Shown: positions 26,966 to 47,581 of the stretch, piece after piece
Numbering within the stretch: position 1 is the first letter of the stretch
Layout: every line of letters begins with the position of its first letter
Assembly: GCA_963695555.1 (NCBI GenBank)
Contig: CAVOGR010000002.1
Span: 224,001-288,000, forward strand
Source of the DNA: an uncultured Gemmatimonadales bacterium
Lineage (GTDB): Bacteria; Gemmatimonadota; Gemmatimonadetes; Gemmatimonadales; GWC2-71-9
Length of the DNA: 64,000 nt
Direction: 5' to 3'
Position numbers and translations under genes: made by a program
The notes under the pieces: generated by a model
What the model was told of the DNA's origin: nothing
The model's input: only the letters and a program-made list of their open reading frames with translations
Databases searched by the model: none

Positions 26966-28578
26966 CCGACCTCGATGAAGGGTTCCGGGAACTCCAGGCG
27001 GAGTACTTGGCCGAGGTGCCCAAGCGCTTGGCCGAGTTGCGTGAAGATTTCGTGGCGATCGGCGCCGGGGATACCAAGGCCCTGGACTCGCTCGCCAGGA
27101 AGTTTCATCAACTGGCGGGCTCGGGCGGCTCCTACGGTTTTCCCGAAATCAGCGCCGTCGCGCGAGAAGCGGAGCAATTCATTCGAGGGAATCCGCCCTG
27201 GAACGCCGATAATCTCGGCCACTTGGACGGAGCCATCGAGCGCTTAGGGGCGGTGGTGGCCGCAGTGACCGGCCCCGAGGAGGCATCGTCTGCCCTCGCG
27301 ATAGACCCCACTTTCCGGGGCCACGTCGCTGGTCGCCCCGGGGAGCTACGCGACGCCGTTCGGGACATCCTCACAGGTGCGGGGCTCCGTGTCACGACAG
27401 ATGGCGGTTCGGTCGAGGAAATGTCCCAGGTCGGGGATCTCCCGCCGTCCCAGTGGCCCGACGTGTTGGTCATTGTCGATCACGGCGATGACGGTGACAT
27501 CGACCCCTTCCTTCTTGCAGCCGCATGGTCATCCCTGCGAGTCGCCCGCCTGCAGGCCATCGTGCTCATCCAAGCAGGTTCCGAGGGAGGCGGGCCGGGT
27601 GTCATGCCGGGCGTCGATGCCATCTTTTCGCCTGAACAGGCTCGCTCTGAGTTGCCGGCCTACGTCACAACGACGATCCGCACCGGGTCGCCACCAATTC
27701 GGGTCCTATTGATTGAGGGCGACCTGGATCAAGCCCAGCTCATGACAGGATGGCTCGAGACTGGAGGCATCCAGGTCGTTCATGTCGGGACCGCGTCTCT
27801 GGCCCATCCCATTTTGCACGGGGAATCGCTGGATATGGTCGTCCTCGACGTGACTTTGCCCGATGCCGACGGGCTCGCCTTTGCCCGGCAGATCGAACGG
27901 CATCAACCGTGGTCGGCCCGGCCGGTCCTCCTGCTCGCCGAACCGGCGGACATCGCCCAACATCTCGAAGCCCTGCGTACAACCGGGGATGCGTTTCTCA
28001 CGAAGCCCATCGCTGACAGACAGGGCCCGTTTCTGAACCTGGTGCTTACGCGCGCAGAGCGCGGCCGTCAGCTTCGAGCGACGGCATACCGGGACAGCCT
28101 GACTGGATTGCTCAACCATGCGACCCTGATGGTCGCGCTCGAGCATGCAATCGACCACGCGCGGCGCCGAGGCACCATGACCGCCCTGCTCATCATCGGC
28201 CTCGACGATCTCGAGGGCGTGAACGCCCGGCATGGTCATCTCAGTGGGGATCAGGTGCTTGCTCATGCCGCCAAGGTGCTTCGCGGTGCGGCCCGCGGAG
28301 GCACGCTGCTTGGCCGCGTAACCGGCACGACACTTGGCGTCATCTCTCTGCCGAAGCACGCCGAAGATGCTGGCGCTCTCGCACGACAGATTCAGGCTGC
28401 CTTCGAGACGCACCCGCTCGATCGTTCCGGCGAGGAGCTTATCAGGATCACCGCCAGCATCGGTATCGCGTGTTCTCCGGGAGTTGCTGACAGCGCGCCG
28501 GCTATGCTCAAGGCTGCCAAGCAAGCGCTCGCGCGCGCGCAGGGCGGCGGCGTGGAATCCGCTCCCCCCACGGCCTGA
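26962..28578 (+). CDS. Hpt-REC-GGDEF signalling protein with degenerate GGDEF
   Basis: Hpt FHQLAGSGGSYGF; REC VLDVTLPDADG..FLTKP; DSLTGLLN..GHLSGD; A-site reads RVTGTTL. Confidence 0.8.
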   Translation: MTDLDEGFRELQAEYLAEVPKRLAELREDFVAIGAGDTKALDSLARKFHQLAGSGGSYGFPEISAVAREAEQFIRGNPPWNADNLGHLDGAIERLGAVVAAVTGPEEASSALAIDPTFRGHVAGRPGELRDAVRDILTGAGLRVTTDGGSVEEMSQVGDLPPSQWPDVLVIVDHGDDGDIDPFLLAAAWSSLRVARLQAIVLIQAGSEGGGPGVMPGVDAIFSPEQARSELPAYVTTTIRTGSPPIRVLLIEGDLDQAQLMTGWLETGGIQVVHVGTASLAHPILHGESLDMVVLDVTLPDADGLAFARQIERHQPWSARPVLLLAEPADIAQHLEALRTTGDAFLTKPIADRQGPFLNLVLTRAERGRQLRATAYRDSLTGLLNHATLMVALEHAIDHARRRGTMTALLIIGLDDLEGVNARHGHLSGDQVLAHAAKVLRGAARGGTLLGRVTGTTLGVISLPKHAEDAGALARQIQAAFETHPLDRSGEELIRITASIGIACSPGVADSAPAMLKAAKQALARAQGGGVESAPPTA

Positions 28579-45466: not shown

Positions 45467-45683
45467 GCTCGGCAGCGGGCTCCGTTCACAAGGGGTTCAC
45501 GTGCGGGGGATCACTTCCCGGGGCGCCCCGAAACTAGTCCCGCCGCTCGCGGCCTACAAGACGGGCAACGACCCCACACCGGGGTGTCGCACAGTGCCAC
45601 CCAGGGCCCGGGTCGAGACAAGGTGGTTGGTTTTAACTCGTTGTCATAAAAGAACTTAATGTGTTGGTCCGCGAGGGAAATTG

Positions 45684-45699
45684 TGGCATGAGTCTCGCT
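45684..45699 (+). promoter_or_regulatory. Candidate sigma54 promoter upstream of the riboswitch
   Basis: TGGCATG-AGTC-TCGCT (GG-N10-GC) preceded by an AT-rich tract. Confidence 0.5.
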
Positions 45700-45761
45700 G
45701 TTTCGTGGGGTGCGGGCAGAGGCCCGCGCAGCAAAAAAACTCGATTGGAACGGACACACGA

Positions 45762-45852
45762 TCCGCCCGATAAGAGCACACCCGGAGCGATCCGGGGCCG
45801 CAAAACTAGAGGTCTCCCCTAGCGGGTGAGATAGCTCGGTGCCGAAGGTGGA
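45762..45852 (+). ncRNA. GEMM-I cyclic-dinucleotide riboswitch, A20 (cGAMP-type) variant
   Basis: P1 TCCGCC/GGTGGA; CGATAAG-A-GC-ACA-CC-CGGA-GCGA(GNRA)-TCCG-GG-GCC-GC-AAAAC; P3 GGTCTC..GAGATAGC; GGTGCCGAA. Confidence 0.85.
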
Positions 45853-45863
45853 AGGCAGTGCGG

Positions 45864-45897
45864 AGCGTGATCCCAGCAAGGGTCGCGCTTTTGTGTT
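45864..45897 (+). terminator. Intrinsic terminator of the riboswitch expression platform
   Basis: AGCGTGATCC-CAGCAA-GGGTCGCGCT followed by TTTGTGTT. Confidence 0.75.
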
Positions 45898-45919
45898 AAA
45901 TCGGGCGTGGGAGCCGCAA

Positions 45920-46381
45920 ATGCCTCTCACGCTACACATCCTGAAACGCTGGGCCCAACTGGCCTGCGCCTTTGCCCCGGTGGCAATCGGCGGGTGCAGT
46001 GCCTTCGAGCCAAGCGACATTCCAGCTGGGGCCATTCCCATGGACCCTCCGGCGCACTTCACCGAGTGGTGGGCGCGCACGGAGCAGTGTTCGGGCTTGA
46101 CGGGATCCATGGCGCCGATCCACTGGTACGTGATGCCGAACGTCTCCTCGTTCCAGACGGACATCGGAGAGAAGGTCGGCCTCTGGATCAAGACCCAATC
46201 GCACGTCGCGATCGTCCTGGCGGAAACCTATGCCGATCACGAGTTAGTAGTGCGCCACGAGATGCTCCACCAGCTACTCCAGCGCGCGGGGCATCCGGCG
46301 GACTACTTCGATGGCAAATGCGGCCTGACCTGGGAGCGCTGGAGCGGTGGCCCGACGATGATGGCATCATCGAGGACGTAA
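45920..46381 (+). CDS. Small lipoprotein with HExxH zincin-like motif
   Basis: Lipobox-like IGGC; VVRHEMLHQLL..GH; GGGAG RBS. Confidence 0.7.
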   Translation: MPLTLHILKRWAQLACAFAPVAIGGCSAFEPSDIPAGAIPMDPPAHFTEWWARTEQCSGLTGSMAPIHWYVMPNVSSFQTDIGEKVGLWIKTQSHVAIVLAETYADHELVVRHEMLHQLLQRAGHPADYFDGKCGLTWERWSGGPTMMASSRT

Positions 46382-46416: not shown

Positions 46417-46452
46417 TCAACGGGGCGTGGAGTGTCATCCACGCCCCGTTGA
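46417..46452. terminator. Probable bidirectional terminator
   Basis: Perfect 15-bp stem TCAACGGGGCGTGGA-GTGTCA-TCCACGCCCCGTTGA between convergent genes, T-tracts near both ends. Confidence 0.75.
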
Positions 46453-46471: not shown

Positions 46472-47323
46472 CTATCGGGTGAACTGTGTTACAAGACGAT
46501 CGAGGCTGGGATTGCCCACCCCGGTGAAGGTTCCCGTAAAGACCCTCGGCGGCTGACCCACGACTTGTAGCGTGACCACGTAGTTCGATTCGGCCTCGCC
46601 GCAGTCATCGAAGTACACCAGGTTGACCGTATAGCTGCCTGTCGGCGCCCCCCCGGTTGGCCACACGATGTTTTCGTTGTTGATGCCGTCGATAGCGCAT
46701 GCGGGATTGGAATCGAGATCCAACACCCCACCGCTCGCGGACGCACGATTGGCGAAGTAGACCTCTTCCTGGGCCGGATCGATCACGTGGAGATCGACAT
46801 CGGTCGGAGCATCCCACCACACGCTCGCCTGCACATCTCCCGTGGCAACCTGAATGATCCGGACGGCACTCGAGGCCGGTGTGCCCAATCCCCCACCTTG
46901 CGCGGCGGCCCCGAACAAGAACGTGGTATTGCTGGGACGCGCCTGGCGGCTCACCGACGCAATCAGGTCCGCCGACGACACCGGCGCGGGGAACGTCAGC
47001 TCGTAGTAGCCTTCGAGCCCCTGCACCGACACGACGACGCGGGCAAAGGGGGCGCTCCCAGTGGCCTCGACCTGGAAGCTACCGCCGTTGATGGCCGTCG
47101 GCGTGGCGTCGACCGTGACCGACGGTCCGCCCGCGGCAGCTGGTCGTCCGCCCTGACGCAGCACGCCGATCACGGCGCCGTCGGCCGTGGCGAGGCGGGT
47201 GACGATGTCCTGGATGTCCGGCAAGATCCCGGTGGGTTCGCTGTCACAGCCGCTGGCACCAACCCAGGCGAGTGCGAGCGCGAGCGCGAGGCCCTGCTTG
47301 CGAATGAACTGGAGTGCTGACAC
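46472..47323 (-). CDS. Lipoprotein with YfaP/DUF2135-like C-terminal domain
   Basis: AGGAG plus GTG, lipobox ASGC; WDAPTDVDLHVIDP..GGVLDLDSN..ENI..G.YTV. Confidence 0.7.
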   Translation of the reverse strand: MSALQFIRKQGLALALALAWVGASGCDSEPTGILPDIQDIVTRLATADGAVIGVLRQGGRPAAAGGPSVTVDATPTAINGGSFQVEATGSAPFARVVVSVQGLEGYYELTFPAPVSSADLIASVSRQARPSNTTFLFGAAAQGGGLGTPASSAVRIIQVATGDVQASVWWDAPTDVDLHVIDPAQEEVYFANRASASGGVLDLDSNPACAIDGINNENIVWPTGGAPTGSYTVNLVYFDDCGEAESNYVVTLQVVGQPPRVFTGTFTGVGNPSLDRLVTQFTR

Positions 47324-47581
47324 GCGACGACTCCTGCTGGAGTGAGTGATCTCGATCACGCGACAAACAAATGCCGGGATCGCCGGATATTCGCCGGTGC
47401 CGAGGGCAATCAGGATGCGTGCCACCGCGTGATGGGCGGACGAGGGCCCGGATTCAGCGGCCCTAACTGCCCTTTTTGGCTTGAGTTATCGCTCTGGAAC
47501 AGGAAATGGGCGCGGTGGGAGAACCGATGCCGCATCTAGAAATCGGCAACGGGGTTTGGCAGGCCGCAAGGGTTCGGAGCC

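Follow-up and report, generated by a model that had tools for sequence, protein, structure and literature searches.

A candidate cGAMP riboswitch of the GEMM-I fold upstream of a zincin-like lipoprotein gene in a Gemmatimonadales bacterium

Introduction

In the published accounts drawn on here, 3′,3′-cGAMP signalling outside phage defence is described from a few deltaproteobacterial lineages and is defined by Hypr GGDEF enzymes, i.e., those with Ser or Thr at the position of PleD D344 (PMC9140294). According to PMC6456294, these Ser/Thr enzymes exclusively carry a GGDE[F/Y] motif and use several purine NTPs, and the cross-dimer Arg, present in 94% of diguanylate cyclases, is a Tyr in GacA. In HD-GYP phosphodiesterases of the cGAMP type, an Rxx(Q/N) motif is reported to replace Rxx(K/R); cGAMP was degraded by five of the six such proteins tested, selectively by three (bioRxiv 10.1101/600031).

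The reader RNAs share the GEMM-I fold. In the Vc2 aptamer of Vibrio cholerae, C92 forms a Watson-Crick pair with the ligand guanine (PMC5888326, PMC6140456), and in the Geobacter GEMM-Ib aptamer Gs1761, located upstream of pgcA, A20 and C92 pair with the A and the G of cGAMP (PMC6140456). The published selectivity of A20 aptamers extends from about 1200-fold (PMC6456294) down to bispecific: the G20A mutant of Vc2 binds c-di-GMP at 53 nM and cGAMP at 120 nM, the natural A20 aptamer Cbe 1-2 of Clostridium beijerinckii is bispecific, and A20 aptamers are described as holding nanomolar c-di-GMP binding via a protonated adenine, bispecificity being called widespread (PMC6140456).

Here we analyze a locus of an uncultured Gemmatimonadales bacterium, within a window of 64,000 nucleotides taken from a 3.57 Mb assembly that is 87% complete. 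The host is neither Geobacter nor a deltaproteobacterium, in agreement with an earlier note on this DNA, which had placed it probably outside that lineage. Our literature search, by title or abstract, returned no relevant report on riboswitches of Gemmatimonadota and no paper characterizing an Asn-type GGDEF. The comparison covered 61 related genomes. The search for GGDEF orthologues took in 36 same-family genomes and 24 genomes of two sister families, and the reading of HD-GYP motifs 37 same-family genomes. The D344 column of the readable GGDEF domains was surveyed in five genomes, namely the source genome (G000), its 98%-complete congener G002, and G020, G045 and G043.

Results

A GEMM-I aptamer with A at position 20

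A scan of the whole window against Rfam 15 (cmscan) gave a single match at the gathering threshold, RF01051 (c-di-GMP-I) at 45765-45846 on the plus strand, with 48.6 bits against a cut-off of 35, an E-value of 1.9e-6 and a span of model positions 1-87 of 87. Across the whole 3.57 Mb assembly, RF01051 matched only at this site. The features of the aptamer are as follows.

45762 to 45852, plus strand: GEMM-I aptamer including P1 (RF01051 match and covariation in relatives)
45762-67 with 45847-52, plus strand: P1, six pairs (covariation in relatives)
45775, plus strand: A in place of Vc2 G20 (model position 11 of the cmscan alignment)
45781 to 45796, plus strand: P2 hairpin, pairs 45781-86/45791-96, with a GCGA (GNRA) tetraloop at 45787-90
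45842, plus strand: C at the Vc2 C92 position (cmscan alignment), inside UGCCGAA

Besides these, a P3 helix is present, the equivalents of the G21-C46 and C22-G45 pairs are 45776/45801 and 45777/45800, and the GCAAAA junction occupies 45800-05 and includes the A47 equivalent at 45802. P1, P2 with its GNRA loop and P3 are thus shared with Vc2.

The fold was assessed on a 27-pair structure specified by hand; RNAalifold alone mis-paired the junction. In 29 distinct relatives, 96.2% of the pair cells of this named structure were paired, compared with only 28–44% in a control in which the partners were slid by 1-3 columns. Both-sided (compensatory) changes were found in 13 of the 27 pairs, against a shuffled mean of 4.5, and the observed value was reached in none of 500 shuffles. 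Such changes affected five of the six pairs of the outer P1 and three of the six of P2, where 100% of the cells were paired, and the columns equivalent to A47 and C92 were invariant. The window element is a genuine GEMM-I aptamer, beyond a chance match.

The consensus G of model position 11, unpaired and directly before the first '<<' pair, aligned to A 45775; by a recount of the Vc2 numbering we take this position to be Vc2 G20. Fold and model score make the element a member of RF01051, and the G20 contact makes it a variant subclass: A stands where the first ligand base is read, and the equivalents of A47 and C92 are kept. The GEMM-I elements that the earlier note had listed by eye (P1, P2 with GCGA, the GCAAAA junction, P3 and the conserved C in UGCCGAA) were all recovered, and the Rfam model with its position-20 column, the check it had proposed, agreed with its reading of A instead of G at 45775.

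Among the 61 related genomes, we found 98 GEMM-I matches, 56 with A20 and 41 with G20. Both kinds occurred together in 15 of the 45 genomes with matches, which argues for two functional kinds. The window aptamer belongs to a GCACACC architecture, in which position 20 was A in 31 of 32 matches and G in one. Over more than 20 genera this type hardly varies, and in the relatives it lies upstream of either the HExxH lipoprotein gene or a gene for a STAS protein. Beside A20, the type has GCACA for GCAAA and C within the GAC bulge as fixed changes, and 19 of 29 relatives lack one of the P3 pairs. Were A20 neutral or simply a weaker form, reversion would be expected in a setting where G20 coexists, which argues that A20 is under selection in the window-type aptamer. 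Unlike Vc2 and its G20A mutant, the window aptamer would therefore carry a natural, selection-held A20, and its expression platform is a different one.

The downstream gene encodes a predicted zincin-like lipoprotein

45920 to 46381, plus strand: gene for a 153-aa predicted lipoprotein, zincin-like (translation; invariant VVRHEMLH motif)

The N-terminus of the product is basic and is followed by a hydrophobic stretch and a lipobox-like AIGGC, the pattern by which lipoproteins are called. In 14 of 14 sequences C26, H113, E114 and H117, and with them HEMLH, were invariant; H125 and E108 are candidates for the third metal ligand. No Pfam or NCBIfam family scored above cut-off for the protein. Its own family has 2102 cluster representatives, and 12 of the 150 listed ones likewise had no Pfam match above cut-off.

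The AlphaFold2 model (mean pLDDT 78.5) had no Foldseek match in the PDB at E ≤0.001. In VIA-align, the top rows were all zincins, headed by minigluzincins (Z 6.5, 6.0 and 5.9) and Spartan (Z 5.8), values below 8 that may reflect merely a common arrangement. The minigluzincins (selecase, abylysin, jannalysin) and SprT/Spartan, the closest in predicted fold (Z 5.8-6.5), are likewise small single-domain HExxH proteins; unlike them, the present protein has the signal peptide of a lipoprotein and two conserved cysteines, and no sequence family is shared. It is thus predicted to be a small, exported, zincin-like HExxH protein, which agrees with the uncharacterized metallopeptidase-like lipoprotein of the earlier note.

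A candidate writer with Asn at the specificity position

The earlier note had also proposed a search for GGDEF domains with Ser or Thr at the PleD D344 position. This search came out negative: such a residue was found in none of the 13 readable GGDEF domains of the source genome and in none of the 18 of the near-complete relatives G002 and G020, the 98%-complete congener G002 giving the same picture by itself. One of the 13 domains of the source genome, however, has Asn in this column (GHEAGN), together with an RxxD I-site and the GGDEF motif; its gene lies at G000:C7:583922-585631. The protein is fused to Fe-S domains (an Fe-S/hydrogenase-like sensor), and the next gene encodes a canonical RPYR HD-GYP protein.

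Orthologues of this Asn GGDEF were present in 33 of the 36 same-family genomes and in 0 of the 24 sister-family genomes. The D344 column held Asn in 28 of 29 readable orthologues and Ser in the remaining one (G023), and the motif was GGDEF in 29 of 29. The cross-dimer column, which lies 44 residues before the specificity residue and aligns to the first Arg of the WspR NRR, read Phe in 13, Tyr in 11, Val in three, Ile in one and Leu in one of the 29, and Arg in none. Several GGDEF orthologues bore the flag "1 TGA inside"; in the one that was read, that of G020, the TGA is a normal stop codon and not selenocysteine.

With the described Hypr enzymes (GacA GSU1658, Bd0367 and GacB of MXAN), the candidate shares the I-site and the obligatory GGDEF, as opposed to GGEEF, and, as with Tyr304 of GacA, its orthologues have a non-Arg cross-dimer residue, mostly Tyr or Phe. 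It differs from them in having Asn (28 of 29) in place of Ser/Thr and in its sensor domains. This putative GMP-AMP cyclase might yet prove to be inactive or one of the ordinary kind. Neither did the search for other cyclase families give a hit: SMODS (PF18144) had no match in the five genomes, and the DncV-like family (PF21654) had no match, but the control of that search also matched nowhere. With this limit on the DncV-like search, the non-CBASS setting assumed by the earlier note stands, no CBASS-type cyclase family having been found.

A candidate eraser with an RxxQ motif

G000:C2:308222-309265: REC-HD-GYP protein with RPYQ after HHE...GYP, in agreement with the Rxx(Q/N) motif rule

The source genome has four HD-GYP domains, of which this one reads RPYQ (Pfam HD_5 at 1e-38, Response_reg at 7e-29). 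RxxQ was found in 33 of the 37 genomes of the source family. The candidate shares this motif with the PmxA-type cGAMP phosphodiesterases.

The ligand

Based on these results, we consider 3′,3′-cGAMP, perhaps with residual c-di-GMP binding, the in-cell ligand of the window switch with a probability of roughly 0.5. Since C92 demands one guanine and A20 suits an adenine, the two together would describe cGAMP. Of the cGAMP reading put forward earlier, the GEMM-I aptamer with A20 stands, but not the step from A20 to a cGAMP preference: because Vc2 G20A and Cbe 1-2 bind both ligands, A20 alone gives no proof of it. The idea is kept alive by the Asn GGDEF with its other Hypr hallmarks, by the Ser orthologue and by the conserved RxxQ HD-GYP. 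The canonical RPYR HD-GYP gene that comes after the Asn GGDEF gene counts against it.

A substantial possibility, short of even odds, is that the element is an ordinary c-di-GMP riboswitch in which A20 lowers the affinity, tunes the threshold or is a habit of the lineage; about ten canonical GGDEF enzymes would then be the source of the signal, and the Asn GGDEF and the RxxQ HD-GYP would be unrelated to it. This is consistent with the nanomolar c-di-GMP binding that A20 aptamers are described as retaining (PMC6140456), with the absence of Ser/Thr Hypr domains from the 13 and 18 domains read above and with the lack of SMODS and DncV-like matches, the control of the latter search being silent too. 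The near-complete sister-family genomes G045 and G043 point the same way: they have A20 aptamers and no SMODS match, their readable GGDEF domains are all of the Asp type (10 of 10), and their best homologues of the RxxQ HD-GYP read RAYR. One A20 aptamer of G045 lies directly upstream of a canonical GGDEF gene, which fits c-di-GMP feedback. Moreover, Big_2 surface proteins of the sister families are preceded by A20 as well as by G20 aptamers, so a distinct signal need not lie behind A20. Cbe 1-2, which likewise has A20 outside Geobacter in a host without a described Ser/Thr Hypr cyclase, offers, by analogy, a cautionary precedent for an A20 switch that reads both ligands or c-di-GMP. On the other side stand the constancy of A20 (31 of 32) across many genera in spite of G20 coexisting in 15 genomes, and the conservation in the family of matched departures, three in all, exactly where reader, writer and eraser recognize guanine. 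Such family-wide matched variants of writer and eraser also set the present case apart from Cbe 1-2 as reported in PMC6140456.

Expression platform and direction of the switch

The elements of the leader downstream of, or overlapping, the aptamer are as follows.

45757 to 45766, plus strand: predicted 5′ strand of an antiterminator, overlapping the 5′ strand of P1 and pairing with 45860-64 and 45866-69
45863 to 45897, plus strand: intrinsic-terminator-like hairpin and U-rich tract (folds of partial and full leaders)
45900 to 45907, plus strand: conserved box AUCGGGCG, directly 5′ of the Shine-Dalgarno sequence in most window-type leaders across genera
45905 to 45932, plus strand: hairpin enclosing the Shine-Dalgarno sequence (GGGAG, 45909-13) and the start codon (45920), from predicted folds
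46417 to 46452, plus strand: terminator-like hairpin closing the monocistronic unit (consensus scan: 15 pairs, 10 of them G-C, and a T-rich tail)

The terminator-like hairpin of the leader pairs 45863-73 with 45880-90 (11 pairs, three of them G-U), with the U-rich tract extending to 45897. The consensus terminator scan did not flag 45863-90; by eye, a similar hairpin with a U-rich tract was seen in other lipoprotein-linked copies. For a transcript ending at 45879, the free fold, which contains the antiterminator, had -45.8 kcal/mol, versus -37.8 kcal/mol with the aptamer enforced; the antiterminator is drawn from one sequence, the genus offering no covariation.

These folds suggest that the leader is probably a transcriptional OFF switch in which P1, antiterminator and terminator compete and which shuts off the lipoprotein gene. 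Ligand binding would close P1 (45762-67 with 45847-52) and so withdraw its 5′ strand from the antiterminator helix formed with 45860-69; the freed terminator (45863-90 and the U tract) would then form and transcription would end. In two relatives, G024 and G026, the 3′ strand of P1 doubles as the Shine-Dalgarno sequence (GGAGGA, about 10 nt upstream of the start codon), which predicts OFF. Against this logic, it is based on the thermodynamic folding of one sequence, the complete transcript favors the terminator even without ligand, and the Shine-Dalgarno hairpin is constant across the modelled states.

We regard it as less likely that this real aptamer is instead an ON switch, or acts chiefly on translation, with a conserved pairing of 45765-80 with the U tract and box (45892-45906) as the regulatory alternative and the terminator-like hairpin as a mere structural spacer. 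The box AUCGGGCG has its complement at the 5′ end of the aptamer (45764-71), and the full leader in its minimum-free-energy fold adopts this long-range helix, with the box paired to 45765-71. Box and U-rich tract are kept before the Shine-Dalgarno sequence across genera, including in the hairpin-less leader of G021, and the cGAMP switches of Geobacter are reported to be ON switches (PMC6456294). However, the probability that the Shine-Dalgarno sequence is unpaired was ≤0.09 in all three cases, whether the aptamer was enforced, the long-range helix was enforced or the fold was left unconstrained. With this equal accessibility, the model yields no translational switch; the two relatives with the Shine-Dalgarno sequence in the 3′ strand of P1 also speak for OFF. 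A CCACGC located 3′ of the start codon, which matches the Shine-Dalgarno hairpin, recurs in relatives.

As for transcription of the unit, no promoter was flagged by the consensus scan; a TTAACT / 18 nt / TAATGT pair at about 45633-45662 is visible by eye. A 656-nt contig from an RNA library covers 45590-46245, i.e., aptamer, terminator and start of the ORF; these data are contigs only, in which uncovered stretches are uninformative, and carry-over of DNA is possible, so we take the contig as a weak hint that leader and ORF are expressed.

Discussion

The closest described system is the GEMM-Ib family of Geobacter, with which the window switch shares the GEMM-I fold, the A in place of G20 and the equivalents of C92 and A47. 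There, as here, several copies occur per genome beside G20 aptamers and control exported or surface proteins, and the same genomes encode a GGDEF enzyme altered at the base-reading residue. Unlike that system, the present one is found in Gemmatimonadota and is predicted to act as an OFF rather than an ON switch; in its candidate cyclase Asn takes the place of Ser/Thr, and the sensor is Fe-S/hydrogenase-like where the Geobacter enzyme has a Rec domain; the aptamer has GCACA, has lost one P3 pair and is only putatively cGAMP-selective.

It is very improbable that the signal is some other nucleotide, for instance a linear or another mixed dinucleotide as the putative product of the Asn GGDEF. In favor of this, Hypr enzymes are reported to accept several purine NTPs (PMC6456294), and the aptamer has fixed changes of its own (GCACA, the C of the GAC bulge, the P3 pair lost in 19 of 29); against it, the remaining ligand-contacting set matches the known complexes, with the A47 and C92 equivalents invariant.

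Returning to cGAMP, we tentatively propose, at less than even odds, that one Gemmatimonadales family has a complete and hitherto undescribed cGAMP pathway, parallel to the Hypr pathway of Geobacter and built from other parts. Its writer would be the family-specific, presumably redox-sensing GGDEF cyclase fused to Fe-S domains, in which Asn (Ser in one genus) replaces the guanine-specifying Asp, Tyr, Phe or Val replaces the cross-dimer Arg and GGDEF is obligatory; it would add a third type to the Ser and Thr forms of Hypr enzyme. The readers would be two sequence classes of A20 riboswitch acting as OFF switches, the eraser would be the REC-HD-GYP protein with the RxxQ motif, and the outputs would be the zincin-like lipoprotein, STAS partner-switching proteins and Ig-like surface proteins.

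If this holds, the cGAMP pathway would extend to a new phylum that is abundant in soil and sediment, and cGAMP cyclases would include Asn-type GGDEFs, which searches based on Ser/Thr have overlooked; the matched set of reader, writer and eraser would be directly testable in vitro. If the RNA reads c-di-GMP instead, it would be a well-conserved natural case of A20 as an unreliable marker of cGAMP riboswitches, which matters for annotation. Either way, the switch offers a first regulatory handle on a large, uncharacterized family of HExxH lipoproteins.

The aptamer and its structure

A scan of the 64-kb window against Rfam 15 (cmscan) returned a single match at the gathering threshold, to c-di-GMP-I (RF01051). 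It lies at 45765-45846 on the forward strand, covers the full model and, with 48.6 bits, exceeds the cut-off of 35. This was also the only RF01051 match in the assembly (3.57 Mb, 14 contigs, 87% complete). In the cmscan alignment, A at 45775 was aligned with the unpaired consensus G directly before the first paired columns, a column which we take, by a recount of Vc2 numbering, to be G20 of this reference aptamer. The following elements were located by reading the sequence:

45787-90, +, P2 tetraloop GCGA
45802, +, A47 equivalent, in the GCAAAA junction
45842, +, C92 equivalent
within 45765-45846, +, P3 helix

The earlier note, made from the sequence alone, had claimed a GEMM-I aptamer with A instead of G at position 20, and had proposed an Infernal search with the c-di-GMP-I model and inspection of that column. 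Both claims held when this search was run, with a match above threshold, A in the column, and P2 with its GCGA loop, the GCAAAA junction, P3 and the C92 equivalent all seen. The ligand-contact roles of G20, A47 and C92 are given in PMC5888326 and PMC6140456.

The structure was tested on 29 distinct sequences of the window's aptamer type, extended by 8 nt of flank each, using 27 pairs named by hand (outer P1, G19-C93, G21-C46, C22-G45, P2 and P3). In this named structure, 96.2% of cells were paired, versus 28-44% with partners slid by 1-3 columns, a control somewhat too favourable to the named structure because the latter was partly derived from the same 29 sequences. The count of compensatory pairs is free of this weakness: both-sided changes were found in 13 of the 27 pairs, compared to a shuffled mean of 4.5, and none of 500 shuffles reached 13. 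Covariation was present in five of the six outer P1 pairs, and one pair that the Rfam model has in P3 was missing in 19 of the 29 sequences, the window's own among them. The RNA at 45765-45846 is almost certainly a real switch. Its fold and model score make it a member of RF01051, and its A20 would place it in a GEMM-Ib-like subclass, of which selectivity is the defining property.

The regulated gene and its product

The first gene 3' of the aptamer and its surroundings are as follows:

45920-46381, +, lipoprotein gene
7 nt upstream of the 45920 start, +, GGGAG
46417-52, +, strong terminator-like hairpin downstream of the lipoprotein gene
46472-47425, -, 317-aa ORF with a lipoprotein-like N-terminus, convergent with the lipoprotein gene
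upstream, -, proline dehydrogenase gene and, farther out, RsgA GTPase gene
downstream, past the 317-aa ORF, -, FadB-like enzyme gene

Since the hairpin at 46417-52 follows the gene, the unit is monocistronic. The flanking genes lie on the opposite strand, are housekeeping genes and are unrelated to the lipoprotein gene; no Pfam family was found in the 317-aa ORF.

Translation of 45920-46381 gives a 153-aa protein whose N-terminus is basic and leads into a hydrophobic stretch and AIGGC. All of its 13 close homologues are labelled hypothetical, and a profile search yielded 2102 cluster representatives at E ≤0.001, with no Pfam family above cut-off in 12 of these that were sampled. In the homologue alignment, C26, C57 and the run VVRHEMLH were invariant, and G124 and C134 nearly so. 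The AlphaFold2 model had a mean pLDDT of 78.5, exceeding 90 across most of residues 40-120, and Foldseek returned no significant structural match for it. A VIA-align search of 48,161 chains, in which a Z below 8 is not proof of fold, ranked abylysin at the top (Z 6.5, rmsd 3.7, 89 aligned), followed by selecase (Z 6.0), jannalysin (Z 5.9) and Spartan (Z 5.8), nearly all lower rows being zincin peptidases. From the invariant HExxH and this structural ranking, a minimal zincin fold would be the best reading.

In relatives, where ORF calling was crude and left a few leaders with no assigned gene, the window-type aptamer was found upstream of the HExxH lipoprotein gene in eight leaders and, in at least 15 leaders, of a gene for a STAS-domain protein of ~103 aa, Pfam STAS_2 being confirmed on two of these proteins. 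Three genomes with two aptamer copies (G020, G021 and G032) carry one before each kind of gene.

Expression platform

Folding of growing transcripts revealed three mutually exclusive helices in the leader:

45762-67 with 45847-52, +, P1
45757-60 and 45762-66 with 45866-69 and 45860-64, +, antiterminator
45863-73 with 45880-90, +, terminator with U-rich tract

When the transcript ends at 45879, with the 5' arm of the terminator emerged, the unconstrained fold contains the antiterminator (-45.8 kcal/mol), compared to -37.8 kcal/mol with the aptamer enforced. The cost to be met by bound ligand would thus be about 8 kcal/mol, an amount within reach of nanomolar binding, and termination would then be favoured, so that the element probably works as an OFF switch. 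In two relatives (G024 and G026), the 3' strand of P1 is the GGAGGA Shine-Dalgarno itself, giving the same sign. The genus is too uniform in sequence for covariation to support the antiterminator, and once full transcription is reached, folding favoured the terminator even without ligand. In the full-length leader fold, a conserved box at 45900-07 pairs with the 5' end of the aptamer, and the Shine-Dalgarno hairpin was closed in all modelled states. A 656-nt RNA-library contig, which may be DNA carry-over, covers 45590-46245 and is a weak hint of read-through RNA across the leader.

The stretch 45892-45906, made up of the U-rich tract that follows the terminator hairpin and the box before the Shine-Dalgarno, is complementary to 45765-45780, a segment that covers A20, G21 and C22. 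This complementarity is kept across genera, even in one leader without the intervening hairpin.

Distribution of A20 and G20 aptamers

The earlier note had judged the organism probably outside the Geobacter/deltaproteobacterial lineage, and close orthologues of the downstream protein, on contigs titled as Gemmatimonadales or Gemmatimonadaceae MAGs (97%, 99% and 56% identity), place it in Gemmatimonadales. RF01051 was present in 45 of 61 genomes searched (the source genome and 60 relatives, one order), and by family, with the source genome left out, in 34/36, 9/12 and 1/12. In all 98 matches listed, position 20 was read with the G21-C22 dinucleotide as anchor: 56 carried A and 41 carried G, and a single weak match had U; 15 genomes had both A20 and G20, 20 had A20 only and nine G20 only. 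The window's type, with GCACACC at positions 21-27, has a core nearly identical across more than 20 genera, and its 32 matches, grouped by the bases adjoining position 20 and not by position 20 itself, carried A20 in 31 cases and G20 in one.

A second A20 class occurs outside the window, in relatives (21 occurrences in 10 genomes, several copies per genome; L065-L068, L071, L073, L075, L076, L079, L091 and other loci). In its GCAAA junction the second A is replaced by G (GCAGAG), it ends in GCCAGC, and it lies mostly upstream of genes for Big_2/fn3 Ig-like surface proteins, the same kind that follows the G20 aptamers of the sister family.

The physiological ligand

A candidate cGAMP-making cyclase is encoded at G000:C7:583922-585631 of the source genome (also L039:1453-3165). 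Its GGDEF domain has GHEAGN in place of the canonical GHxxGD, retains the RxxD I-site and RYGGDEF, and has TVK at WspR's NRR; in the 570-aa protein, this domain is preceded by two 4Fe-4S motifs, then an Fe-hydrogenase-like domain and an Fe-S motif. Orthologues were found in 33/36 genomes of the window's family and in 0/24 of two sister families (E 1e-40). Thirty were fetched and 29 were readable; the specificity column held Asn in 28 and Ser in one (G023), the cross-dimer column F in 13, Y in 11, V in three, I in one and L in one, and the motif was GGDEF throughout. For Hypr enzymes, PMC6456294 describes GGDEF only, replacement of the Arg present in 94% of cyclases (Tyr in GacA) and replacement of the Asp. 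The candidate shares the two accessory features and falls outside the Ser/Thr definition: the Asp is replaced in both, by Ser/Thr in Hypr enzymes but by Asn here. Toggling within one orthologous group suggests that Asn and Ser may be equivalent at this column. A search of titles and abstracts found no paper on Asn-type GGDEF domains, nor on GEMM-I in Gemmatimonadota.

A candidate eraser, the REC-HD-GYP protein at G000:C2:308222-309265 (L182:1223-2266), is encoded ~20 kb past the window's end and is one of four HD-GYP proteins in the genome. Its RPYQ takes the place of the RxxK/R found in guanine-reading enzymes, and RxxQ is shared by 33 of the 37 genomes read from the window's family. According to bioRxiv 10.1101/600031, Rxx(Q/N) enzymes degraded cGAMP in five of six tested cases. 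With A20, the Asn-type GGDEF and the RxxQ HD-GYP, the candidate reader, writer and eraser thus each deviate at the guanine-reading position, family-wide, and on this comparative evidence we put the probability that cGAMP is the physiological ligand at about 0.5.

That c-di-GMP is instead the ligand is a real possibility, short of even odds, and several results count in its favour. According to PMC6140456, A20 by itself gives bispecific RNAs, Vc2 G20A binding c-di-GMP at 53 nM and cGAMP at 120 nM, and Cbe 1-2 binding both. The expected GGDEF domains with Ser/Thr at the PleD D344 column did not materialize, either among 13 readable domains of the source genome or among 18 in G020 and in G002, a 98%-complete genome of the same genus. 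The Asn-type gene is followed, in its operon, by an ORF of 255 aa that has no family and by a gene for an HD-GYP with the canonical RPYR, an order conserved in relatives as judged from their coordinates and a counterpoint to the cGAMP reading. Furthermore, G045 and G043, both near-complete and from a sister family, have A20 aptamers, yet all 10 readable GGDEF domains are Asp-type, and their homologues of the RxxQ protein read RAYR. In G045, an A20 aptamer built like the window's (C3:2425071-2425146) lies directly before a gene (C3:2423795-2424268) for a membrane protein whose GGDEF domain is of the canonical Asp type, an arrangement that could constitute a feedback loop on dinucleotide synthesis. 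No SMODS domain was found in the five genomes searched, a result that counts against cGAMP and agrees with the earlier note's proposal that any cGAMP signalling would be of a non-CBASS kind. That the aptamer reads something other than these two dinucleotides is very improbable.

The window itself also contains a GGDEF-domain match (28084-28545, +, 93.8 bits) inside a 645-aa open frame, with VTGTTL in place of GGDEF and the RxxD I-site missing; the domain is therefore probably catalytically dead.

Whether cGAMP or c-di-GMP is read by this family-wide A20 aptamer is directly testable, and the answer would be informative whichever way binding falls out.
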